Source: an uncultured Lentisphaeraceae bacterium (GTDB taxonomy: Bacteria; Verrucomicrobiota; Kiritimatiellia; RFP12; DVOR01). From it: DNA of 64,000 nucleotides. The stretch is from contig CASEMS010000015.1 in the NCBI GenBank assembly GCA_949288955.1, forward strand, positions 4,269 to 68,268. The letters are read 5' to 3'. The notes beneath the pieces were generated by a model, which made no database searches, had not been told where the DNA came from, and saw only the letters and a program-made list of their open reading frames with translations. A program made the position numbers and the translations under genes. Shown here piece after piece: positions 6,967 through 29,900 of this stretch (position 1 is its first letter; the number at the start of each line of letters is the position of its first letter).

Positions 6967-9900
6967 CGGGGCGGACGAGGACGAAGCGCGGGAGCCAGAC
7001 GGCCCAGTCGGCGAGGAGGCGTTTGGCCTTGGGGCTCCCGGTGGCGGCGGCGTGGGCCTCCACCAACGCCCGAAGCGCGCGCTCCTCCTCAGTGCCGGGG
7101 TCGATGTTCAGGAGGTCGACGGAGGCGAGGTTGCACCGGAGGTCGAAGTCCCCCGCCTCATCGAGGGCGTAGGCCAGGCCACCGGTCATGCCGGCGGCGA
7201 AGTTGTCCCCCACGGGGCCGAGGAAGAGCGCCGCCCCGCCGGTCATGTACTCGCACCCGTGGTCGCCCGCGCCCTCGCAGGTGAGGGTGGCGCCGGAGTT
7301 GCGGATGGCGAAGCGCTCGCCGGCCTGCCCGCAGACATGGATGCGCCCCGCGGTGGCGCCGTAGCCCACGGCATTGCCGACGGCGACGTTCGCCTCGGGC
7401 GCGTAGGTGGCGTCGGCGGGCGGGCGCACGGCCACGACGCCGCCGGAAAGCCCCTTGCCCACGAAGTCGTTGGCCTCGCCCTCCAACGTGATCGCCACGC
7501 CGCGTGGCAGGAAGGCGCCGAGGCTCTGCCCGGCCACGCCGCGCAGACGCACGCGGAGCGTCCCCTCGGGCAGGCCCGCCGCACCCGCGAAGGCGGCGAT
7601 CTCGCCGGCGAGGCCGGCGCCGACGGAGCGGTCGGCGTTGCGCACGGGGAGGTCGGCCTCGCGCCGTTCCCCCTCACGGAGGGCCGCCAAGCCGCCGAGG
7701 GCGGGGATGAGGCAGTCGCGGTCGTAGGCACCCGCGGGCGGGGCGTCGTCGGGACGGGCCGGCCGGTCATCCGGCGCGAGCGCCACGCGGCGGAGCAACG
7801 CGGAGAGGTCGAGCGCGGCGGCACCGCCGTGGGCGACACGCGCGGGGGCGTCATCCAACGCGTCGGCACGGAGCAGGTCGGTGCGTCCGCACGCCTCCTC
7901 CAGCGAATGGAGACCGAGCGCGGCGAGGGTCTCGCGCGTCTCGCGGGCGACGAAGCGCAGGAAGCGCGCCACGTGCGCAGGCTCCCCGGCGAAGCGGGCG
8001 CGGCACGCGGGCTCCTGCGTGGCGATGCCCACGGGGCACACGCCGCGGTGGCATTGTCGGCACATCGCGCAGCCGAGGCTGACGAGCAGGGCGGTGCCGA
8101 AGCCGAACTCCTGGGCGCCCAGAAGCGCGGCCACGACGACATCCCGCCCCGTGCGCAGACCGCCATCGACCTGGAGGCGCACGCGGCGGCGGAGACGGTT
8201 GAGGGCGAGCGTCTGGTGGGTCTCGGCCAACCCGATCTCCCACGGGAGCCCGGCGTGCTGGATGGCGGAGATCGGCGCCGCCCCGGTGCCGCCGTCGCTC
8301 CCGGAGATGAGGATGACGTCGGCATGGGCCTTGGCGACGCCCGCGGCGACGGTGCCGACACCGCCCTCGGAGGCGAGTTTGACGGAGATGCGGGCCGCGG
8401 GGTTGACGGCGCGGAGGTCGTGGATCAGCTGGGCGAAGTCCTCGATGGAGTAGATGTCGTGGTGGGGCGGCGGGGAGATGAGGGTGAGACCGGGGCGGGC
8501 GTGCCGCAGACGGGCGACGGTGGCGTCGACCTTGTGGCCGGGGAGCTGGCCGCCCTCGCCCGGCTTGGCGCCTTGGGCCATCTTGATCTGGAGGTCCTTG
8601 GCGTGGCGGAGGTAGGAGGCCGTAACGCCGAAGCGGCCGGAGGCGACCTGGCGGATGGCGCTGGCGCGGTCGGTGCCGTCGCGCGCGGGATCCTCGCCGC
8701 CCTCGCCGCAGTTGCTCATCGCGCCCAAGGCGTTGAAGGCGCGGGCGATGGCCTCGTGCGCCTCGGGGCTGATGGAGCCGAGGCTCATGGCGCCGGCGAC
8801 GAAGTGGCGGAGGATGGACGCCTCGTCCTCCACCGCGTCGAGAGGAAGGGGCGTGGTGGGGGCGAAGGCGAGCAAAGCGCGAAGCGTGCAGGCCTGGGCG
8901 TCGACGGCCTGGGAGAAGCGGCGGAAGCGGGCGTAGTCATCCTCGCGGACGGCGGCGCGGAGGTCGGCGACGGTCTGCGGCCCCCAGACGCGCCGCTCGG
9001 CGCGGGGCGCCTCCTCCAAGCGGCGGTGGACGTCCCGCGCGATGGCGTCCAGCCCCACGCCGCCGACGGGGCTGGGCGTGCCGGGGAGCCAACGGTCGAG
9101 GAACGCGCGGTCGAGGCCCAACGCCTCGAAGAGCTGGGCGGAGCGGTAGGAGCGCAAGGTGGCGATGCCCATCTTGGAGAGCACCTTGAGGATGCCTTGG
9201 CAGAGGGCCTCGACGAAGTTGCCGGTGGCGGAGACGGCGTCGTTGCCCGTACGACCGCGAGCGGCAAGGTCGCTGACGGTGGCCAACGCCAGCCAGGGAT
9301 GGACGGCGGTGGCGCCGTAGGCCAACAGGAGCGCCACATGGTTGACCTCGCGCACCTCGCCGGATTGGACGATCAGGCCGGTCTGCGAGCGGAGCCCCCG
9401 CTCGGCGAGGGCGCGGTTGACGGCGGCGACGGCGAGCAAGGGCGGGATGGGCGCCTCCTCGGGGGAGAGGCCGCGGTCGGTGAGGATCAGGAGGCGCCGC
9501 CCCTCGCCCGAGGCCAAGGCAACCGCCTGTTCGGCGAGGGCCGTGAGCGCGGCGTCGAGGGCCGTGCCGTCCCCGCCCGCGGGCCAGGCCAGGCGCAGGG
9601 TGCCGGGACGGAAGACAGGGTCGCCGACGCGCGCAAGGTGCTCGACCTCGGCATCGGTGAGGATGGGGCGGCGCATCTTGAGAAGGTGGGCGTGGGCGGG
9701 GGTCTCGGCGAGCGTGTTGGGGAGATTGCCCACGTAGGTCATCAGACTCATGACGGAACGTTCGCGGATGGGGTCGATGGGCGGGTTGGTAACCTGCGCG
9801 AAACGTTGGCGGAAGTAGTCGGGGAGAATGCGGGGGCGGTCGGAGAGGACGGCCGGCGCGGCGTCGTCGCCCATCGCGCCGGTGGGCTCGCGGCCGGTCT

Positions 9901-11317
9901 TCGCCATCTGCAAAAGCCCCACCTCGACGGCCTCGCGGGTGTAACCGAAGCGACGCCACAGCGGTTCGAGCGCGCCGGGCACGGGGTCGGGCGCCGTCTC
10001 GGCGAAGAGTGCGCCCAGGGCGATGCGGTTCTCCGCGACCCAACGGCGATAGGGCCGCCGCCGGGCGATGTGGGCCTTGAGCTCGGCGTCGCCCACCACG
10101 CGGTGGGCGGGGAGGTCGAGCCAGAGCATCTCGCCGGGACGGAGACGGCCGTGGTGGACGACCGAGTCGGGCGGGAGGTCGAGGACGCCGGCCTCGGAGG
10201 CGAGGACGAAGGTGCCATCCTGGCAGAGGGTGTAGCGGGCGGGGCGGAGGCCGTTGCGGTCGAGGACGGCGCCGGCGCGGAGACCGTCGGAGAAGACGAT
10301 GGCGGCGGGGCCGTCCCAGGGCTCCATGAGGGCCGATTCGTACTCCAGGAAGCCGCGGAGGTCGTTGCCCATGCGGTGGGTCGGGCCCCAAGCCTGGGGC
10401 AGCAGCAGGAGCATCGCGTGGGGGAGGTCGCGCCCGGCGCGGACGAGCAGCTCCAGCATGGCGTCAAGGCTGGCGGAGTCGGAGAGGCCGGGCGGGATGA
10501 GGGGGAGGGCCTCGGGGAGGTCGGGCAGGAGCGGGGAGGCGAGGGCGGCGGTTCGGGCGCGGAGGGCGGCGAGGTTGCCGCGGAGGGTGTTGATCTCGCC
10601 ATTGTGCGCCAACAGACGGAAGGGCTGGGCGAGGGCCCAGGTGGGGAAGGTGTTGGTGCTGTAGCGTTGGTGGGCCACGATGAGGGCGGAGGCGAAGTCG
10701 GGCGCGCGGAGGTCGGCGTAGAAGGCGTCGAGCTGGTGCGCGAGGAGGAGCCCTTTGTAGACGACGCTGCGGGCGGAGAGGGAGCAGACGAAGAGCCGCT
10801 CGCCCAAAGCCTGCTCCATGCGACGGCGGAGGATGAAGAGGCGACGCTCCAAAGCCTCGTCCGCGAGGTCGTCGGGCGCCGCCAGGAAGAGCTGGCGGAT
10901 GCGCGGACAGCTCGCGCGGGCGGAACGGCCGATGGCCGAGGGGTCGGTGGGCACCTCGCGCCACACGAAGGGCTCGAAGCCCTCCGCGCACGCCATCGCC
11001 TCGATCTCCCCCTCCGCCCCCTCGCCGCCGAAGAGCATCGCCACGGCATAGCGTCCCGACGCGGGCAGGTTGGGGACGTGCGCGCGGAAGAAACCATCGG
11101 GCATCGCGATGAGGACGCCCGCGCCGTCGCCCGTCTCGGGATCCCACCCCGCCGCGCCGCGATGGGCCAAACGGCGGAGCGCCTTCAGTCCCAGCGCGAC
11201 GATGCGATGGCTGGGGCGGTTGTTGAGGTCGGCCACGAGGCCGACGCCGCACGCGTCATGTTCATTCTGGGGGTCGTAGAGCCCCTGACGTTGGGGGAGG
11301 TCGAGCGACTGTTCCAT
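6938..11317 (-). CDS. gltB: Glutamate synthase large subunit, stand-alone (probably ferredoxin-dependent GOGAT)
   Basis: ~1460 aa with an N-terminal Ntn amidotransferase domain beginning MEQ...NEHDACGVG, plus FMN and GXGXG domains. Start set at ATG 11317; the upstream extension to 11467 merely reads through intergenic repeats. No gltD small subunit is adjacent. Confidence 0.9.
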
Positions 11318-21854: not shown

Positions 21855-21876
21855 CCCCTTTTCAACGCAAACCACA

Positions 21877-21908
21877 CGGCCCTGCGGCGAGTGCCCAGGG
21901 CCTTTTTC
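21877..21908 (+). terminator. Rho-independent terminator after carB
   Basis: Hairpin ggccctgcggcgagtgcccagggcc followed by ttttt. Confidence 0.55.
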
Positions 21909-22176
21909 ATCCACTCCGCCGCCGATCCCCCACGATAACACATCGATGAGGCAGCAACATCCTCTGCGCTAAACGTTACAAGCGATTGGGATTGCGCCTC
22001 TCGGCCAACGGACACCACCCTCTCCAATGACCCCGACCACACCAAGTTCGTCGAGTCTGCAACCGCGCCTTCTCCGCCCCCTATCCTCCGAAAATGCCGT
22101 CACAGTAAGAAAACCGCCACGGACAACCCTGACAAAACACCAGCACAGAAGCCTTCGTCGTCAAAACACTCCGACC

Positions 22177-24957
22177 TCAAACGCCCGCTTGCGGCTCAAG
22201 CGCATTGGCACGGAGCGATTGAAGAATAGCACCGATGGCCCGACCCTCAGACTCCTCAAAAAGAACCGTGAAATGCGCTGGGCGATCGAATGGCGGGCGC
22301 ACGAAAATACCAAAGTCCTCCACGGCCCCATGCAACGTTACATACGTGATGATACGTTGCACAAACGCGATTTGCGCTTGGTTCAGCGCATGGGTATTGA
22401 TAAATGCCGCAAAGGCTTGGGAGACCGCCTCGCGATCCATGTGCGCAACGCGACGCACCATCAGCCCCAACGGCATGTCCGAAAAACTGCTCGCATAGTC
22501 CGCCTTTGTCCCCAGCACATGGAAGAGGATATGCTCCAACGCCTCGAAATCCGCCTTGGTCAACGGCAAGTTGTGCGTCAATTTGTAGATAGGCGCATCG
22601 TCGGCATGGTCGCGCAGATAGCGTTCCACCCGATCGTGATAGGAAACAAAGTCGTCGCCTTGGGGCAACTCGCCCCCCTCCGCCACGCGCAACACGCGAT
22701 CCGCGACATCCGTGAAGACGATGCGCCGCTCACCTTGCTCCAGGAAACGCGCCAACTCCCGCAACTCCAGGCGCACGGCCTCGAAGGCCAAGGGATCGGC
22801 CTGCTCCCAAAAGGCATCTTCCCGCACGCGCCGCAACGTCTCCAAGCGCGCCACGACCTGCGGGATGGACGTCTTCCGCATGAGCGTCTCGGCGATGGCG
22901 CACACGCGCCGCCGCGCTTGGGAGACGGCGGGCGAACTCTCCGCCCAAGCCAACGTCAGCCCATAGATCAACGCATCGAAACGTTTCGCTGCCTCGTCCG
23001 GTTCCGGGTCGCGCACCAAGGGTGCAATTTCCTCGCACAAGGTCGCCACGTCTTCCTCCGAGAGACAGACGTATGCCTGCCGATCGCGAAACCGTTCCAT
23101 GGCGCGGGCATGGAGCCGCACGCTCACCAATTCCCGGTTTAGCGCCGCCACCTGGCCGTGGCATACCGCGACCAGCCGCTCGCGCCAGGCGCGATAGGTG
23201 TCCGCCCCATATTCCGCGCCCTGAAAAAGGGCAATCAACGCCACGCGCCGCGCGAAAAGCGTCTCCGAGAGGCTCTGCGCCGCCTGCCCTTCTTCGCCGT
23301 CTTTGTTCAGCCGGAAAAAGGCGCAATTGTCGCAATAGTCGAAGAGAAAGAAGCGCCGCTTGCCCGCGTAAGCCCCATCCACCAAGTCTTGACACGCCAA
23401 CCCCGGGCACAGACGCGTGCCGCGCCCAAGCATCTGCCAAAACTTCGCCTTCGAGTAGACCCGCTTAAAGAAGACCAGGTTCACGCACTCCGGCACATCA
23501 ATGCCCGTGTCCATCATGTCCACCGAAATGGCAATCTGCGGCACGCGCCCGGGGTCGCGAAAATGCTCAATCAGCGTCTGCGCGAAACGATCCTCGCACA
23601 CAATGCTCCGCGCGAACGACCCGCGATAGTAAGGATACAGCGCGTTGAAGCGCTCCTCGATGAACCGTGCGTGGCGTGCATTCTGCGCGAAAATAATTGT
23701 TTTCCCCAACTTCTCCCCACCATCCACCTTGATACCACGCTCCATCACGTCCTGCAACACCAAGTCCACCGTGTCCGCGTTGAAAATGAAGTGATTGATC
23801 TGTTCAGGCTCGACCACCGCCGGCGGCGGCTCGTCCCCCCAATCCTCATCGTAGCGCTCTTTGTCCCGCTCCGACAAATCATCATAGACAATACCCCGGT
23901 CCAGCCGCTCCGTCTTCACCTCCATAAGATGATAAGGCACCAACACCTTGTCCCGCCCCTCCGCCGTCTCATATTCATATGCAAAGGTCGGCTCCCCATC
24001 CTTCATCCCAAAAAAGTCATACGTATTCCGATCCACCTCTACCTTCGGCGTCGCCGTCAGCCCCACCAGAATGGCATCGAGATACGCAAAGATCGCCCGA
24101 TACTTCTTGAAAATGCTCCGATGCGCCTCGTCCACCACAATCAAATCGAAATGCGCCACCGAAAAACGGGCACCCTCCGCCGCATCAAGCGCGTTCAGCA
24201 ACGTGGGGTAAGTGGCGAAAACCACCCGCGCCCCGAGCGGCTCCTCCCCCTCGCACAGATTGCACAACGCCAACTCCGGCAAATGTTGCTTGAACGCTTC
24301 CTTCGCCTGGCGCACCAAAGCCAGCCGATCCGCCAAAAAGAGCACGTTCTTCACCCACCCCCCACGGCTCAGCACATCCACCAAACTCACCGCCGTCCGC
24401 GTCTTCCCCGTCCCCGTCGCCATCACCAGCAAATGCCGCCGCCGACCCAATTCCAACCCCTCGCAGATCGCCCGGATCGCCTCCAACTGATACGGCCTGT
24501 TCGTGATCCGCTCATCCACCCGCAGATTGTGCAGCGTCGCCCGCCGCTCCCGGCTGTCCATCAGCCGCTCCAAATCCTCCCGCGCGAAAATCCCGCTCAC
24601 CCGCCGAGGCGACCCGCTTCGGTCGTCCCAAAAGGTCGTCTCCGCCCCATTCGTCAAGAACACCATCGGCCGCCGCCCAAACCGCCGCTCCAACCCATCC
24701 GCGTAAAGCCCCGCCTGCGTCTGCCCCGCCTGGCGATCCACACACCAACGTTTCGCCTCCACCACCGCCAAAGGCAACCCATCCCCGCCAAACAACACAT
24801 AATCCGCCCGCCCCATCCCCGCCGGCAACGCCACCGGGAACTCCCGAACCGCCCCCTCCAACCCCTCGTCCGCAAGCGACCACCCCGCACGCCGCAGATC
24901 CTCGTCAATCCACGCCGCCCGCGTCTCCGCCTCCGTTATCTCCTGCCCATCGCTCAT
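22177..24957 (-). CDS. hsdR: Type I restriction enzyme, R (restriction/helicase) subunit
   Basis: N-terminal MSDGQEITEAETRAAWIDEDLRRAGW is HsdR-like. Helicase motifs GTGKT and a DEAH-like VVDEAHRS are present, 927 aa. Start assigned to ATG 24957; the longer ORF extension has no support. Confidence 0.9.
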   Translation of the reverse strand: MSDGQEITEAETRAAWIDEDLRRAGWSLADEGLEGAVREFPVALPAGMGRADYVLFGGDGLPLAVVEAKRWCVDRQAGQTQAGLYADGLERRFGRRPMVFLTNGAETTFWDDRSGSPRRVSGIFAREDLERLMDSRERRATLHNLRVDERITNRPYQLEAIRAICEGLELGRRRHLLVMATGTGKTRTAVSLVDVLSRGGWVKNVLFLADRLALVRQAKEAFKQHLPELALCNLCEGEEPLGARVVFATYPTLLNALDAAEGARFSVAHFDLIVVDEAHRSIFKKYRAIFAYLDAILVGLTATPKVEVDRNTYDFFGMKDGEPTFAYEYETAEGRDKVLVPYHLMEVKTERLDRGIVYDDLSERDKERYDEDWGDEPPPAVVEPEQINHFIFNADTVDLVLQDVMERGIKVDGGEKLGKTIIFAQNARHARFIEERFNALYPYYRGSFARSIVCEDRFAQTLIEHFRDPGRVPQIAISVDMMDTGIDVPECVNLVFFKRVYSKAKFWQMLGRGTRLCPGLACQDLVDGAYAGKRRFFLFDYCDNCAFFRLNKDGEEGQAAQSLSETLFARRVALIALFQGAEYGADTYRAWRERLVAVCHGQVAALNRELVSVRLHARAMERFRDRQAYVCLSEEDVATLCEEIAPLVRDPEPDEAAKRFDALIYGLTLAWAESSPAVSQARRRVCAIAETLMRKTSIPQVVARLETLRRVREDAFWEQADPLAFEAVRLELRELARFLEQGERRIVFTDVADRVLRVAEGGELPQGDDFVSYHDRVERYLRDHADDAPIYKLTHNLPLTKADFEALEHILFHVLGTKADYASSFSDMPLGLMVRRVAHMDREAVSQAFAAFINTHALNQAQIAFVQRIITYVTLHGAVEDFGIFVRPPFDRPAHFTVLFEESEGRAIGAILQSLRANALEPQAGV

Positions 24958-25098
24958 GACAACCCCATTATCGCACAAAACCACCCCATCGCACAAACCA
25001 ACCGCCAAAGTCGCCTTGCCTGTTCCGGTGCGTTTGCTACAATAAAGGCAGAAAGAACGCCGCCGGAGCACACGAGGGTGTATCACCAGCATGAGCAA

Positions 25099-25695
25099 TC
25101 ATGTGGCAGTCGTGCCGGGGGTTCTTTCTTTTTCTTTATCGAACCGCGCCTGCCTTTCTGCCAGAATCTCTTGAAACTCTCCAGATTGGTATGCCCTCAA
25201 CAACCATTTCGAAGGCCCATACGATATCAAGCATAATTTTTCACTTCTGTACGCTCTCGAGAAATGATGTAATGGTTTGATGAATTCATAGTCGACTAAA
25301 TACTGTACGACTCCTGCGTCTTGTGGTAAGGAAAGTCTCCTATCCTCACTCATCAACAGTTGTGTTACCAAAGCAAATGGGAGTTCATTCATATGCTTTA
25401 GTTCTTCCCACTGCTTTTGCTCCAAGGCCAACTCCTTTAATTGTTCCTTTATCCACACACCTATTTTCCCAGCGATGAAAACCACACAAACCGTTAACAG
25501 AACCAAAAAGACAAGCCCAATGAATGGCCGATAGCTTTGGACAAATCCGCTTATTCCAAATCGAATGAGAATCGATTCGGGGAGGAACAGTAATGCTCCG
25601 GAAACGATTGTCAATACAACCACGCCTCTTTTTGAAAAAAGAACCGTGTACAGCAATTTCACTACCTGTTCCAAACACGCACTTCCATCAATCAT
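25099..25695 (-). CDS. Hypothetical two-TM membrane protein embedded between hsdS and hsdR
   Basis: 198 aa from ATG 25695, which has a GAGGGGAAG RBS and overlaps the hsdS stop as ATGATTGA. Two hydrophobic helices (VVVLTIVSGALLFLP, FIGLVFLVLLTVCVVFIAG) precede a charged soluble C-terminal region. Local GC is ~45-50% against ~70% background. I recognise no family for it. Confidence 0.6.
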   Translation of the reverse strand: MIDGSACLEQVVKLLYTVLFSKRGVVVLTIVSGALLFLPESILIRFGISGFVQSYRPFIGLVFLVLLTVCVVFIAGKIGVWIKEQLKELALEQKQWEELKHMNELPFALVTQLLMSEDRRLSLPQDAGVVQYLVDYEFIKPLHHFSRAYRSEKLCLISYGPSKWLLRAYQSGEFQEILAERQARFDKEKERTPGTTAT

Positions 25696-26791
25696 TTCCG
25701 CACTTCCCCTCAATATTGAAGTAACGTTGCTTTAATGATGCTTGCAAGGTTTCCGCGACAAGGAGTGATGCCTGAATAGCCTTTTTCTGTTTTTCTATGC
25801 CCGCTGATTGATTGGAGAAGACTTCAATAAGCGATAAGGGCGGGAACGGCAGCTCAATCAGATCCATCATCTGATTGGTGATTTGGTTGATGGTGGTGGT
25901 TTTGGCCGTTCGGATTTGTAGACGAAAAGACGGGGTTTGGAAGAAGGCTTGGACATATTCAGGATATGGTGTCCGGATAATCTTCATGAAAGAGCCGAAA
26001 TACATAGGCTCCGGTAATCTGGGAATGATGGCGGACTTCCCCACTAATTGTATGCTTCCATTACAGGCGCACATAAGGATGTCGTTCTCTTTAACCAAAT
26101 AACGTTCTTTGATCGGTATCTTTACCCGAACCGTATCGTCCAAGACAAGCGCTTGGTTCTGAATGTTGCCGGCACGGAGAACAACCGTTCCTTCCAAAGA
26201 AACATCGATCGGTTTATAGTTCAAGCCATTATAATATTCGGCAATATCAGACAGTTTTCGTATTGGCCATTGTTTTGAGTTGGTCACCATATCGCCGAAG
26301 AGCTCGTGGAAGCGGGATTGAGCAAGGGTGTCCAACAGGGCGAGTTGGCGGCGGTAGTTGGCGATGAGCGCATCGGCTTGGTCGAGGACGGCGGCGATGC
26401 GGCGTTGCTCGGGCAAAGAGGGAATGTCAAAAACCAACTCTTTTAGCCATTTGAAGTGCCGACTATAGCCAGTATTTGGAATGGATGTCGAGGCCAAATA
26501 GTGATACAGATAGCGGGGATTTACATCGGCTTGCCTTGGGCGAAGAATCTTCGTACCATCAGCGCCAAGGAAGAAGGGTTCATCCACATACTTCGCTATA
26601 CGCGTGTGGTCACCAAAAACAATCGCAGGGACATCATTGAAAAGCCCTTCTTCTAAGTCCGTGTAACCTGCGACTTGATTATGGCCTTGATCGATAATCG
26701 GGTGCGCACCTTTCGACAGATAGTTACCCGTCTGGAGCTTCCTCCCTCGTTTTGTCTCATCTGCAAACAATTCTCGGAAGGGAACCTTCAC
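25688..26791 (-). CDS. hsdS: Type I restriction-modification specificity subunit
   Basis: Two target-recognition-domain (TRD) architecture with conserved central and C-terminal coiled regions (LPEQRRIAAVLDQADALI...). The GTG start overlaps the hsdM stop as GTGA. Low-GC gene. Confidence 0.85.
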   Translation of the reverse strand: MKVPFRELFADETKRGRKLQTGNYLSKGAHPIIDQGHNQVAGYTDLEEGLFNDVPAIVFGDHTRIAKYVDEPFFLGADGTKILRPRQADVNPRYLYHYLASTSIPNTGYSRHFKWLKELVFDIPSLPEQRRIAAVLDQADALIANYRRQLALLDTLAQSRFHELFGDMVTNSKQWPIRKLSDIAEYYNGLNYKPIDVSLEGTVVLRAGNIQNQALVLDDTVRVKIPIKERYLVKENDILMCACNGSIQLVGKSAIIPRLPEPMYFGSFMKIIRTPYPEYVQAFFQTPSFRLQIRTAKTTTINQITNQMMDLIELPFPPLSLIEVFSNQSAGIEKQKKAIQASLLVAETLQASLKQRYFNIEGKCGND

Positions 26792-28308
26792 AGCATGGCC
26801 TCCAGGTTGGCGAGGGAGGCGGCGGCTTGGGCGTTGAGGGATTTGAGTTCGGCGAGGAGCTGGGAAGTGGGGGGATAGGCGACGGGGACGTAGGGGATTT
26901 CTTTGTATTTGTTGATGGAGAGGTCGTAGGCGTTGGCGGCAAGTTCGGCTTTGGGGACGAGGAAACTTTGGGCGGTGCGGGGGCGGGCAGCCTCGGCGGG
27001 GAGATTGGCGAATCGGGCGAGGATGTCTGGGATGTCGTTGGCGTCGATGGGGTTACGTTTGTCGTCGAGGGAGAAGCCGTCGGCGCGCATATCGTAGAAC
27101 CAGACGTTGTCGGTGCCGCCGGAGCCGGTTTTGGTGAAGACGAGGATGGCAGTGGAGACGCCGGCATAGGGCTTGAAGACGCCGGAGGGCATGGAGACGA
27201 CGGCGCGGAGGGCGTGGTCCTCGACAAGCATTTTCCGCAAGGCGCGGTGGGCTTTGGAGGAACCGAAAAGGACTCCGTCGGGGACGATGCAGGCGCAACG
27301 GCCGCCGAGTTTGAGGAGGCGGAGGAAGAGAGCGACGAAAAGGAGCTCGGTCTTTTTGGTGTCGGCGACGGCGCGGAGGTCGGGGCTGATGGATGCCTCG
27401 TCGACGTTGCCTTTGAAGGGCGGGTTGGCGAGGCAGACGGTGAAGGCGTTCGCGCGTGCGCACTGCTTAGAGACGCTGTCTTGGTAGGCGATTTCGGGGT
27501 GTCGGATGCCGTGCAGCATGAGGTTCATGGCGGCGATGCGCAACATGGTGCGATCCATGTCAAAGCCGGTGAAGAGCGCGCCCTCGAAATGGCGCCATTG
27601 GGGCTCGGTCATGGTGTCGCCGTGGCGGGTGCGGATCCATTCGGCTGCTGAGATGAGGAAACCGGCGGTGCCGCAGGCGGGGTCGCAGAGGGTGTCGTCC
27701 GGGGTTGGGGCGACGAGGGCGACCATCAGCTCGCGAATGTGTTTGGGCGTGCGGAATTGGCCGTTGCGCCCGGAGGTGGCCAGCTTGCTGAGCATGTATT
27801 CGTAAAGATCGCCGCGGACGTCTTGGTCGCGCAGGTCGTGCTCGTAGAGCTCGTCCAAGCCGGCGACGAGTTTTTGGAGCATTTGCGGCGTGGGGATGAG
27901 GAAGATGGCGTCTTCCATGTAGCGGGCGAAGGCGGTCTCCGGCTCGTCGCCGCCGGGGCGGGCCTCGGCGAAGTCGGGGGCGTCTGGATCCGGCAATGTT
28001 CCGCCGCGCATGGCCTTGATGGCGGGGAAGACGCGGTCGCGCACGATGGCAAACATTTCGCGGGGGTCACGGTTCTTGAAGCGGCTCCACCGCATGGACT
28101 GCCCCGCCACGGATTGGGGGAAGAGGCGGGGGCGATTTGTGGGGCCAAGCCGCCCCAAGCGCTCCGTCTCGCGCTCCTGCTCATCCAAATCGTGAATGAA
28201 CATCAGGTAAGTCAGTTGCTCGATGCCCTTCAGAGGATCGGCGATGCCGCCGTTCCACAAATCCGTCCAAATCCTATCGACCTTACCCTTGATTGCGCCC
28301 GTGATCAT
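26788..28308 (-). CDS. hsdM: Type I restriction-modification N6-adenine DNA methyltransferase subunit
   Basis: HsdM N-domain (ITGAIKGKVDRIWTDLWNGGI) and the NPPF catalytic motif (CLANPPFKG). Start chosen at ATG 28308, which has a GAAAGG RBS. An alternative upstream ATG at 28332 exists. Confidence 0.88.
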   Translation of the reverse strand: MITGAIKGKVDRIWTDLWNGGIADPLKGIEQLTYLMFIHDLDEQERETERLGRLGPTNRPRLFPQSVAGQSMRWSRFKNRDPREMFAIVRDRVFPAIKAMRGGTLPDPDAPDFAEARPGGDEPETAFARYMEDAIFLIPTPQMLQKLVAGLDELYEHDLRDQDVRGDLYEYMLSKLATSGRNGQFRTPKHIRELMVALVAPTPDDTLCDPACGTAGFLISAAEWIRTRHGDTMTEPQWRHFEGALFTGFDMDRTMLRIAAMNLMLHGIRHPEIAYQDSVSKQCARANAFTVCLANPPFKGNVDEASISPDLRAVADTKKTELLFVALFLRLLKLGGRCACIVPDGVLFGSSKAHRALRKMLVEDHALRAVVSMPSGVFKPYAGVSTAILVFTKTGSGGTDNVWFYDMRADGFSLDDKRNPIDANDIPDILARFANLPAEAARPRTAQSFLVPKAELAANAYDLSINKYKEIPYVPVAYPPTSQLLAELKSLNAQAAASLANLEAML

Positions 28309-28379
28309 GCCAAACCTTTCCGTAGCCCGCATTGTAACAAACTTTGCGCAATACCTCCCCGTCGAAGACGGTTACGCAA

Positions 28380-29900
28380 TCAGGCGTCGACGAAGAGCTC
28401 GGCGGTGGCGAAGAGGGGGTCGTTGGTGGCGCGGATGCCGAGGCGGCGGAGGCCGGCCTCGTCGCCGGGGGTGAGCATATGGGAGAGGTGCATCTCGCAG
28501 TCGCGCAGGTCGGCGAGGCGTTCGAGGGCGGCCTTGGCGTCGGGATCGGTGGCAGCGCAGATGGCGAGGGAGACGAGGGTCTCGTCGAGGTTGAGCGAAC
28601 CGTACTTGCCCTTGAGGATGCCCTGCTTCATGTGGGTGACGGAGGCGATGGTCTCGGGGGCGAGGAGGTGGCGGCCCTGCGGGATGCCGGCCAGGCGCTT
28701 GACGGCGTTGAGCACGGTGGCGGCGGCGGCGTGGAGGTGGGGAGAGTTCTTGCCGCGAACGATCTCGCCGTCGGGCAGCTCCAAGGCCGCGCCGCAGGCC
28801 ACGCCTTCGAGGGCATGGGTGAGCGAGGCGTCGTGCGCGGCCTGGCGCGCGGGCACCACCACGGCGCGGTCCTCGGGGCTGAGGCGCAGTTGGCGCATGA
28901 GCCGCTCAAGGATCTCCACGGGGCGCTTGTCGGAGGAGCCTTTGGCGACCGCGTCGGAGAGGTGGCGGAAGTAACGGCGGATGACCTCCTGACGCGCGGC
29001 CTCCTGGCAGACGGCGTCGTCCACGATGCCGGCGGAGATACGGTTCACGCCCATGTCGGTGGGGCTCTTGTAGGGGCACTCGCCGCCGCGGTCGAGGCGC
29101 GTCCAGATCTCGCGCAGGAGGGGGAAGGCGTCCACGTCGCGGTTGTAATTCACGGCCACCTTGCCGTAGGCCTCCAGGTGGAAGGGGTCGATCATGTTGA
29201 TGTCACCCAGGTCGGCGGTGGCGGCCTCGTAGGCGAGGTTCACGGGATGCTTGAGGGGCAGATCCCAGACGGGGAAGGTCTCGAACTTGGCGTAACCGGC
29301 GGGGCGGCCGGCCATGCGGTCGTGATAGAGCATGGTCAGGCAGGTGGCCAACTTGCCGGAGCCGGGGCCGGGGCCGGTGACCACCACGATGGGGCGCGTC
29401 GTCTCCACGTAGGCGTTGGCGCCGTAACCTTCGGGGGAGACCACCAGGTCAAGGTTGGAGGGATAGCCCGGCACCGCGCGGTGCAGCTTCACCGTCACCC
29501 CGCGCGACTCCAACTTGTTGCGGAACTGCAACGCCGCAGGCTGACCGTCAAACCGCGTGATCACCACCGCACAGACGTGGATGCCCCAGGCGCGGAGCGA
29601 ATCGATGAGCTTGAGCGCGTCGTCGTCGTAGGAGATGCCGAAGTCCGCGCGCATCTTCTTGCGCTCGATGTCCTCCGCGTAGACGCAGAGGATGATCTCC
29701 GCCTTGTCCCCCAACGAGCGGAGCAGGCGCAATTTCGCGTTCGGGTCGTAGCCCGGCAACACGCGCGCGGCGTGGTAGTCGAACATCAGCTTCCCGCCGA
29801 ACTCCAGATAAAGTTTGTTGCCGAAAGCCTCCGCCCGCGCCATCAGGCCCTCGGCCTGTTTCCGCAAATACGCCTCGTTGTCGAATCCGATCTTCCGCAT
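28380..29900 (-). CDS. DUF1846 / UPF0371 family protein
   Basis: Matches the conserved UPF0371 blocks KLYLEFGGKL, AARVLPGY, GPGSGKLATC, FETFPVW, HPVNLAYEAATADL and NMIDPFHL. Start at internal ATG 29900 (MRKIGFDNEAYL). Confidence 0.7.
   Translation of the reverse strand: MRKIGFDNEAYLRKQAEGLMARAEAFGNKLYLEFGGKLMFDYHAARVLPGYDPNAKLRLLRSLGDKAEIILCVYAEDIERKKMRADFGISYDDDALKLIDSLRAWGIHVCAVVITRFDGQPAALQFRNKLESRGVTVKLHRAVPGYPSNLDLVVSPEGYGANAYVETTRPIVVVTGPGPGSGKLATCLTMLYHDRMAGRPAGYAKFETFPVWDLPLKHPVNLAYEAATADLGDINMIDPFHLEAYGKVAVNYNRDVDAFPLLREIWTRLDRGGECPYKSPTDMGVNRISAGIVDDAVCQEAARQEVIRRYFRHLSDAVAKGSSDKRPVEILERLMRQLRLSPEDRAVVVPARQAAHDASLTHALEGVACGAALELPDGEIVRGKNSPHLHAAAATVLNAVKRLAGIPQGRHLLAPETIASVTHMKQGILKGKYGSLNLDETLVSLAICAATDPDAKAALERLADLRDCEMHLSHMLTPGDEAGLRRLGIRATNDPLFATAELFVDA

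Follow-up and report, generated by a model that had tools for sequence, protein, structure and literature searches.

A small membrane-protein gene, here called X (198 aa), lies between hsdS and hsdR of a type I restriction-modification (R-M) operon in the stretch of DNA analysed here, 64,000 nucleotides of contig CASEMS010000015.1 from an uncultured Lentisphaeraceae bacterium of the Kiritimatiellia (hereafter the window). Judged from its sequence, X is a distant member of the SieB family (Pfam PF14163), and the hsdS-X-hsdR placement recurs in other gut bacteria. The SieB family itself was already known; what is new is a SieB-like clade that resides inside type I R-M operons. By analogy with SieB of phage P22 we favour, with moderate confidence, the reading that X is a SieB-type membrane abortive-infection (Abi) or exclusion effector, co-expressed with the methylase genes. 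Thousands of families embedded in R-M systems were described by Payne et al. (10.1101/2024.01.29.577857), and the part of the supplementary tables of that preprint considered here holds no SieB or PF14163 entry; nor did a literature search turn up a paper joining SieB-family proteins to type I R-M.

X matches the Pfam profile of SieB (Super-infection exclusion protein B) with 67.6 bits (E 1.2e-18; cutoff 26). Its residues 26-144 align to positions 2-120 of the 147 profile positions, which takes in the transmembrane (TM) region and the beginning of the soluble domain. On the same profile P22 SieB (from BK000583) scores 101.4 bits and P0005, an allele of X, 21.8 bits, under the cutoff. The architecture of the family (~160-210 aa, two N-terminal TM helices and a soluble domain) is also found in X by hydropathy, structure prediction and alignment. 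A profile of 61 relatives of X could be aligned colinearly with P22 SieB by hhalign, residues 24-142 against 27-151 of P22 SieB (E 9.5e-5, probability 58.7%, 12% identity). The Oribacterium relative WP_009214424.1 has been named "super-infection exclusion protein B" automatically in RefSeq, so that databases already label such genes through Pfam transfer. The initial annotation had recognised no characterised family for X, a statement that the Pfam match overturns. It had also compared the layout with SieB- and SLATT-like proteins. The former likeness proves to be actual family membership; SLATT membership was rejected, as no SLATT family is found among the Pfam matches of X at E up to 1. The remaining weak Pfam matches, DUF1648 and SNaCT12 (E ~0.07), are both sub-threshold, and no housekeeping family was matched.

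The two N-terminal TM helices and the soluble tail noted initially are seen both in the hydropathy profile, which peaks around residues 25-45 and 57-80 (maximum 2.97, at residues 58-76), and in an AlphaFold2 (AF2) model built from the 61-sequence alignment of diverse relatives. The mean pLDDT (per-residue confidence score) of this model is 92 and its pTM (global confidence score) 0.72, and residues 56-100, comprising the second TM helix and a charged stalk, form one unbroken helix (pLDDT 95-97). The soluble domain is modelled as a winged helix of the MarR/ArsR-like kind, and domains of this class often bind DNA. DNA binding by X itself is doubtful, however, because the presumed recognition helix (residues 128-135, GVVQYLVD) and the family consensus hold no basic residues; the domain as a whole is about neutral. 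Basic residues border both TM segments, on the N- and the C-terminal side, and the sequence suggests an N-in/C-in topology. Foldseek comparison of the model with BFVD and PDB gave no significant match.

The signature domains of a type I system (HsdM, HsdS and HsdR) are all present in one cluster according to Pfam and PADLOC, in the order hsdM-hsdS-X-hsdR and all on the minus strand of the window. The hsdM stop and the hsdS start overlap by 4 nt (GTGA). As initially described, the open reading frame (ORF) of X begins before hsdS ends: its ATG (25695-25693) overlaps the hsdS stop (25690-25688) by 8 nt, within GGAAATGATTGA (junction sequence: ATGATTGA). A GAGGGG box ends 10 nt ahead of this ATG. 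It is a plausible Shine-Dalgarno sequence, although the "strong" ribosome-binding site of the initial annotation is not obvious from it. Translational coupling inside the operon, claimed at the same time, holds for hsdS to X but not for X to hsdR: X belongs to the hsdM-hsdS-X unit, since a 141-nt spacer with an Rfam motif parts its stop from the probable hsdR start. The chance that 198 codons stay open is ~7e-6, as computed from base composition, and the frame is unbroken in five alleles of 31-62% identity.

The low G+C content (GC) of X, likewise noted initially, is 0.43, close to that of hsdS (0.477) and far from those of hsdM (0.636), hsdR (0.614) and the window (0.68). In every locus X is the gene of lowest GC in its operon, which suggests import from low-GC donors on top of the codon bias of TM proteins. 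The operon as a whole (21855-28380, GC 0.43-0.64) is a compositional island in a Kiritimatiellia chromosome of 68-75% GC. It is flanked by carB on one side and by a DUF1846 gene and lysS on the other, and no phage genes are found among its neighbours in the window. LysS is 84-86% identical to proteins from Kiritimatiellia metagenome-assembled genomes, Candidatus Spyradenecus among them, which places the host as an uncultured gut member of the Kiritimatiellia.

Relatives of X were sought by a word-index search, which returned 3 and then 18 proteins only, and by an exhaustive profile search of 1.84 billion cluster representatives, which yielded at least 251 proteins at E<=1e-3 but only 12 at E<=1e-10. 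The matches listed are all short, mostly 160-210 aa, and share the motifs SGxLLFLP in the first and IGxxFL in the second TM helix; the soluble domain is conserved too. All nearest relatives with readable flanks lie between hsdS and hsdR, in 13 distinct loci that form two diverged clades and stem from Kiritimatiellia, Lachnospiraceae, Oribacterium, Butyrivibrio and Christensenellaceae. The link with hsd genes and the slot between hsdS and hsdR, which the initial annotation had put forward, are thus recurrent. Clade A consists of X, an identical copy (P0001) and P0002-P0005 (62, 59, 43 and 32% identity to X). Its loci (window/L001-L008, L009, L017 and L018-L021), all from related gut metagenome assemblies, show hsdM-hsdS-X-hsdR wherever the flanks can be read; a search of GTDB genomes with the clade A alignment found no related loci.

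Clade B comprises the next-best matches, proteins 171-184 aa long with 22-31% identity to X, at loci in Clostridia lineages and metagenomes (L024, L025, L028-L032, L037 and L038). The loci were retrieved with patterns specific to clade B, and in the GTDB genomes related loci came up with the narrow clade B alignment alone, so that the census is biased. Both flanks are available in Lachnospiraceae (L028), Oribacterium sp. oral taxon 078 (L029), Butyrivibrio sp. NC2002 (L030), a Clostridia (L031) and a Christensenellaceae (L032) metagenome-assembled genome and a metagenome contig (L024). The order is hsdM, hsdS, optionally a 104-aa coiled-coil ORF, the SieB-like gene, optionally a GmrSD-like gene with or without a 256-aa ORF, and then hsdR. 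L025 follows this order from hsdS through hsdR, L031 and L032 have the plain hsdS-X-hsdR arrangement of the window, P0008 lies directly 3' of an hsdS gene and P0011 directly ahead of an hsdR gene. As their HsdM is 52% and their HsdR ~41% identical to those of the window, the clade B operons represent the same R-M lineage.

The coiled-coil ORF (104-111 aa) belongs to no known family (PKK sub-threshold only) and stands directly ahead of the SieB-like gene in most clade B loci (L024 2856-3170, L025 1313-1627, L010 105-440, L028-L030 ~9674-9997). It is absent from L031, L032 and the window, and may encode a partner protein. The gene that follows the SieB-like gene in some clade B operons encodes GmrSD_N and HNH domains, its best PADLOC match being NsnA (113 bits). 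Between it and hsdR, L025 and L030 carry a further ORF of 256 aa that matches no known family (positions of these genes: L024 3673-4938; L025 2184-3395 and 3416-4186; L030 10545-12543). The gap between hsdS and hsdR thus stacks several embedded genes. TgvAB and BrxU (GmrSD-type) are defence genes that also lie between hsdS and hsdR and add a complementary layer; they are nucleases, whereas X is a membrane protein (PMC11411939).

More distant members of the family are found in other surroundings. P0010 adjoins HNH, KilA-N and KAP-NTPase genes, P0164 belongs to an island that also holds Ltp, RelA_SpoT, GmrSD_N and methylase/endonuclease genes, P0158 is located near HEPN and NACHT genes, and the copies of Bacillus and Carnobacterium are solitary genes of plasmids or phage-plasmids. 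No hsd gene is present on the contig of P0016; this contig and that of P0006 are too short to judge the context. In a neighbour-joining tree clade A has a bootstrap value of 100 and clade B of 77, and all members from non-R-M contexts fall outside both, the sister relation of A and B being left unsettled by this tree. The R-M association is therefore specific to the part of the family nearest X. The members outside R-M sit in defence-type contexts, plasmids and prophages, which supports the role in defence favoured here, and the homologs, taken together, show an association with R-M loci or defence islands. Relatives in phages are almost lacking for clades A and B. With tblastn, X had no relative in either phages or plasmids, and IMG/VR, scanned with the clade A alignment, yielded no close one. 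With regard to P0158 (L022), the sub-threshold match of X residues 26-139 to SNaCT12 (PF22719, a short NACHT-associated C-terminal effector domain; E 0.074) hints, together with the NACHT gene nearby, that SieB-like hairpins may be remotely connected with STAND effector modules.

Within clade A, hsdS and X are exchanged together. In blastn comparison, L018 and L019 match the window at 96-97% identity as far as the last base of hsdM, and at 96.5-97% again from position 25133 through hsdR. Between these flanks they carry a different allele, with HsdS 31% and X (P0005) 31-32% identical to the proteins of the window. Because the two genes are replaced together between near-identical hsdM and hsdR flanks, hsdS and X behave as an exchangeable allelic cassette in one population. 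L001 and L006 differ from the window only in the first target recognition domain (TRD1) of hsdS (window ~26412-26787) and have an identical X, so that X is independent of any particular TRD1. The TRD1 of L001 (6130-6543) and L006, on contigs 96-99% identical to the window, resembles that of L009, a case of classical TRD shuffling within one population; the gene caller gives their hsdS as 308 aa, yet the frame is open back to the hsdM stop.

X is constrained, yet it evolves fast. For the same pairs of loci the ratio of nonsynonymous to synonymous divergence (dN/dS) is 0.37-0.48 for X and 0.11-0.12 for hsdM, and although dS is saturated in the allele comparisons, the X frames are still intact. 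A pseudogene was rejected on these grounds, intact frames and dN/dS below 1. When the window is compared with L009, identity in the soluble part of X is 35-54% (dN 0.34-0.54), as against 76-89% (dN 0.05-0.12) for the adjacent HsdS residues 126-367. The soluble domain thus changes much faster than HsdS, the protein that it would contact if it bound there. This pattern fits an arms-race sensor, and the contrast with the conserved HsdS is mild evidence that X has no fixed R-M partner.

X is translated from the hsdM-hsdS-X message, coupled to hsdS. As a SieB-type effector it would most likely span the inner membrane as a helical hairpin of N-in/C-in topology, the stalk and the MarR-like winged helix lying in the cytoplasm. 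On the analogy of P22 SieB, recognition of a phage product by the cytoplasmic part would lead the TM hairpin, probably oligomeric, to damage membrane function, and the infection would be aborted. Phages that evade restriction would in this way meet a second barrier. P22 SieB, the only characterised member of the family, halts cellular macromolecular synthesis midway in the lytic cycle of superinfecting P22-like phages (PMC10461980), and it is inhibited by Esc, a truncated product of sieB (PMC10002423), which suggests to us that SieB acts as an oligomer. X most likely works alone, as do other R-M-embedded genes such as TgvAB, which act independently within a type I R-M system (PMC11411939). Independent sensing of phage is favoured because the fast soluble domain lies beside a conserved HsdS and because members elsewhere in the family stand alone.

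The likeness between X and P22 SieB (also lambda/Rac SieB) extends to size (198 and 192 aa), a score above the PF14163 threshold, two N-terminal TM helices with a colinear soluble domain of ~100 aa, and a place in defence-type loci. The pairwise identity is ~12%, and the genetic setting differs. P22 sieB is carried by the prophage, in the PL region by ral, with the internal-start product Esc and the sas antisense RNA. X is chromosomal, coupled to hsdS and without the prophage-borne setting of a lysogen. It has methionines at positions 1, 102 and 115 only (none at 2-101) and hence, unlike Esc-type sieB, lacks an internal start near the N-terminus; instead of a 5' sas RNA, its sole antisense element is an unrelated Rfam motif at the 3' end. 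In P22 (BK000583 29349-30336; L027 2850-3837) sieB lies beside, and divergent from, ral, which functions in restriction alleviation towards type I systems. The founding SieB is thus also next to a type I R-M-related function, on the phage side, though this may be coincidence.

A number of points weigh against X being such an effector. Its function, and that of its clade, is carried over from P22 SieB, and the similarity between the two is remote, as the hhalign probability of 58.7% illustrates: BLASTP of X against P22 SieB gave no match, and in the Foldseek search of BFVD the 195-aa P22 entry Q38660, which we take to be SieB, was found at rank 7 with an E of 0.36. The damage to the membrane is an assumption, for which the mechanism of P22 SieB gives no basis. 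The search with profile hidden Markov models that the initial annotation had suggested gave the PF14163 hit in Pfam, but with PADLOC-DB 2.0.0 (including the HEC and PDC models) there were zero matches for X, a clade B protein, P0005 and P22 SieB itself, and scans of X against NCBIfam and PHROGs returned nothing significant. The 13 loci may go back to as few as one ancient insertion, the slot gaining and losing other genes since, so that "recurrent" means retained and not necessarily gained independently; contexts were read for ~20 of the at least 251 family clusters. Finally, dN/dS is ~0.9 in X residues 146-198, a value that may stem from relaxed constraint and not from diversifying selection.

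The 3' end of X is overlapped by a small RNA (sRNA) motif of the DUF3800-VII family (RF02967). The motif runs antisense to the operon and extends over the final 34 nt of X as well as 47 nt of the spacer, and its right edge (25132) abuts the cassette-swap boundary at 25133. This position explains the conservation of the C-terminal tail ERTPGTTAT even in the 32% allele. The motif is also present in L018 (2064-2144), L019 (2395-2475) and L009 (7400-7482), and absent from L017 and all clade B loci. An extended -10 element (TTGCTAYAATA) is conserved in four loci, the diverged L009 included, and the motif terminates in a U-run, so that the region looks like an independent antisense sRNA gene. In the window both strands are predicted to fold, the RF02967 (+) strand with -33.4 kcal/mol (z -2.4) and the operon strand with -33.0 kcal/mol (z -4.4); in L009 the Rfam-match strand reaches -25.6 and the other strand -19.7 kcal/mol. 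The complement of the motif could also form a hairpin at the 3' end of the hsdM-hsdS-X transcript. Motifs of the DUF3800 group are orphan RNAs defined near DUF3800 genes (PMC5737381), DUF3800 being an RNase H-like domain that is also present in type VII retrons (PMC7736814). No DUF3800 gene was seen adjoining the motif in the window.

The position of X invites a comparison with PrrC. In the prr locus prrC occupies the same slot, in the order hsdM-hsdS-prrC-hsdR, and X could likewise be a guard that is latent on HsdS/HsdM until it is freed by an anti-restriction protein of the Ocr, ArdA or Stp type and kills the cell. Coupling of X to hsdS would match the stoichiometry of such a complex, both genes are swapped as one cassette between a conserved hsdM and hsdR, and the arrangement has been kept over very deep divergence. 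We nevertheless consider this unlikely, and the sensing of anti-restriction that the initial annotation had raised for X speculative. Linkage between two conserved recombination flanks can explain the joint swapping, and the same X occurs with two TRD1 alleles of HsdS. A fixed interface predicts otherwise than the contrast between a diverged soluble domain and a conserved HsdS in window and L009, and in clade B the 104-aa ORF or the GmrSD-like gene can part X from hsdS or hsdR. PrrC (EcoprrI locus) and X share the slot and the idea of a suicide effector that backs restriction, but PrrC is a soluble ABC-ATPase/nuclease and X has neither domain; the identity of X as a PrrC-type anticodon nuclease was rejected, as there is no PADLOC match to PrrC and no Pfam match to an ATPase. 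Quite unlikely, too, is an extended form of the guard, in which X and its clade are a dedicated fourth R-M component: a membrane winged-helix protein, co-adapted and co-exchanged with HsdS, that triggers abortive infection upon anti-restriction, with the sRNA setting the threshold in Kiritimatiellia. In that case X would keep watch on whether the R-M complex is intact, or on the DNA that the complex engages at the membrane.

Killing is not required if X merely anchors the R-M complex (via HsdS) or DNA (via the winged helix) at the inner membrane, or tunes restriction. EcoKI is a type I enzyme that has been reported to associate with the membrane, X and hsdS are translated together, and the winged helix of X is of a class that often binds DNA. 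The neutral domain and the recognition helix devoid of basic residues speak against the latter, most type I systems function without such a protein, and the members on plasmids and prophages stand alone, so that the core function of the family needs no R-M enzyme; we regard a tether or regulator as very unlikely. Still less probable is a toxin-antitoxin arrangement in the manner of the type I pair txpA/RatA, with X as a membrane toxin checked by the antisense DUF3800-VII sRNA, a module that would stabilise the hsdS cassette or act as an Abi switch. The full-length motif over the end of X, with its upstream -10 element, terminal U-run and conservation in four loci, agrees with this, and P22 sieB is under antisense RNA control as well (PMC10461980, PMC10002423). 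Its absence from L017 and clade B, however, means that the motif is no general partner of R-M-embedded SieB-like genes, and the motif family was defined by association with DUF3800, not with SieB (PMC5737381). With 198 aa and a folded soluble domain X is, moreover, far above the size of type I toxins (<60 aa), and with the antisense motif confined to clade A it was not placed in that class. Lambda RexB and the type I toxins are also small membrane proteins presumed to damage the membrane, and an antisense sRNA over the 3' end is likewise found in clade A; they have no sequence relation to X, which has a predicted structured winged-helix domain that resembles a sensor. Least credible of all is the view of X as a non-defence passenger, a membrane ORF that is in decay or neutral and travels with horizontally acquired hsdS alleles. 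Its low GC (like that of hsdS), its high dN and the dN/dS of up to ~0.9 in its C-terminal third would suit such a passenger. The frame is intact in all alleles despite saturated dS, however, the arrangement is kept between operons in which HsdM is only 52% identical, the AF2 model from 61 diverse sequences is very confident and the Pfam score is above threshold.

The coordinates of the operon and of its elements are collected in Table 1. For two of the genes the start is ambiguous. The hsdR frame is open for 47 codons above the ATG at 24957, and gene callers give 926-975 aa for sister contigs; the source contig carries the 926-aa form, from ATG 24957. This start is favoured because the RNA motif sits in the spacer, and an hsdR extended through the 141 nt was rejected, since it would cross both the motif and the promoter-like site. 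A second possible ATG of hsdM lies upstream at 28332, and related contigs carry the 506-aa form as called.

Table 1. Features of the R-M operon, of gene X and of the antisense RNA, in positions of the window
Feature	Position	Strand	Residues of X	Evidence
hsdR, restriction/translocase subunit, 926 aa	22177..24957	-		Pfam ResIII, HSDR_N, Helicase_C, EcoEI_R_C; PADLOC REase_I 468 bits
X-hsdR spacer, 141 nt, probably non-coding	24958..25098	-		holds Rfam motif and promoter-like site
Promoter-like site (TTGCCT, 16 nt, TACAAT, with TG)	25016..25043	+		consensus match alone; ends ~8 nt before RF02967 motif
Rfam RF02967 DUF3800-VII ("Gene; sRNA")	25052..25132	+		53.8 bits vs gathering 36.2, E 3.7e-8, full length
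Gene X, SieB-family (PF14163) membrane protein, 198 aa	25099..25695	-	1-198	ORF, Pfam match, junction sequence
Two C-terminal helices			163-190	AF2
Predicted cytoplasmic winged-helix domain (helix-strand-helix-wing)	25213..25386	-	104-161	AF2
TM helix 2 (~57-80) and charged amphipathic stalk (81-100)	25396..25527	-	57-100	hydropathy, AF2
Two short loop helices			40-54	AF2
TM helix 1, family motif SGxLLFLP(E)	25585..25632	-	22-37	hydropathy, AF2, alignments
N-terminal helix			4-18	AF2
hsdS, specificity subunit, 367 aa, GTG start	25688..26791	-		Pfam Methylase_S; PADLOC Specificity_I 232.8 bits
hsdM, type I methyltransferase subunit, 506 aa	26788..28308	-		Pfam N6_Mtase 197.6 bits, HsdM_N; PADLOC MTase_I 566 bits

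SieB has been known genetically for some 50 years. The SieA and SieB systems were nevertheless called "less well understood" in a paper on P22 (PMC10461980); no solved structure or mechanism for SieB was found in the literature, and PADLOC has no model for it. The overlap with X gives DUF3800-VII, an orphan Weinberg motif, a defined genetic setting. Should X act independently of the R-M enzyme, it would be one more embedded Abi gene, useful for annotation though unsurprising. Should it be a guard, it would represent a second, unrelated solution of the PrrC type and provide the first functional context for the SieB fold and for the DUF3800 RNA motif. If the reading favoured here, that of a SieB-type effector, is true, the natural X alleles, which are 32-100% identical and have near-identical hsdM and hsdR flanks, could be swapped to map phage specificity, and the predicted TM hairpin with a MarR-like winged helix would be a concrete model to test for the whole family. 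The SieB-like clade in the type I R-M operons of abundant gut bacteria would then add a membrane-effector class to the embedded defences.

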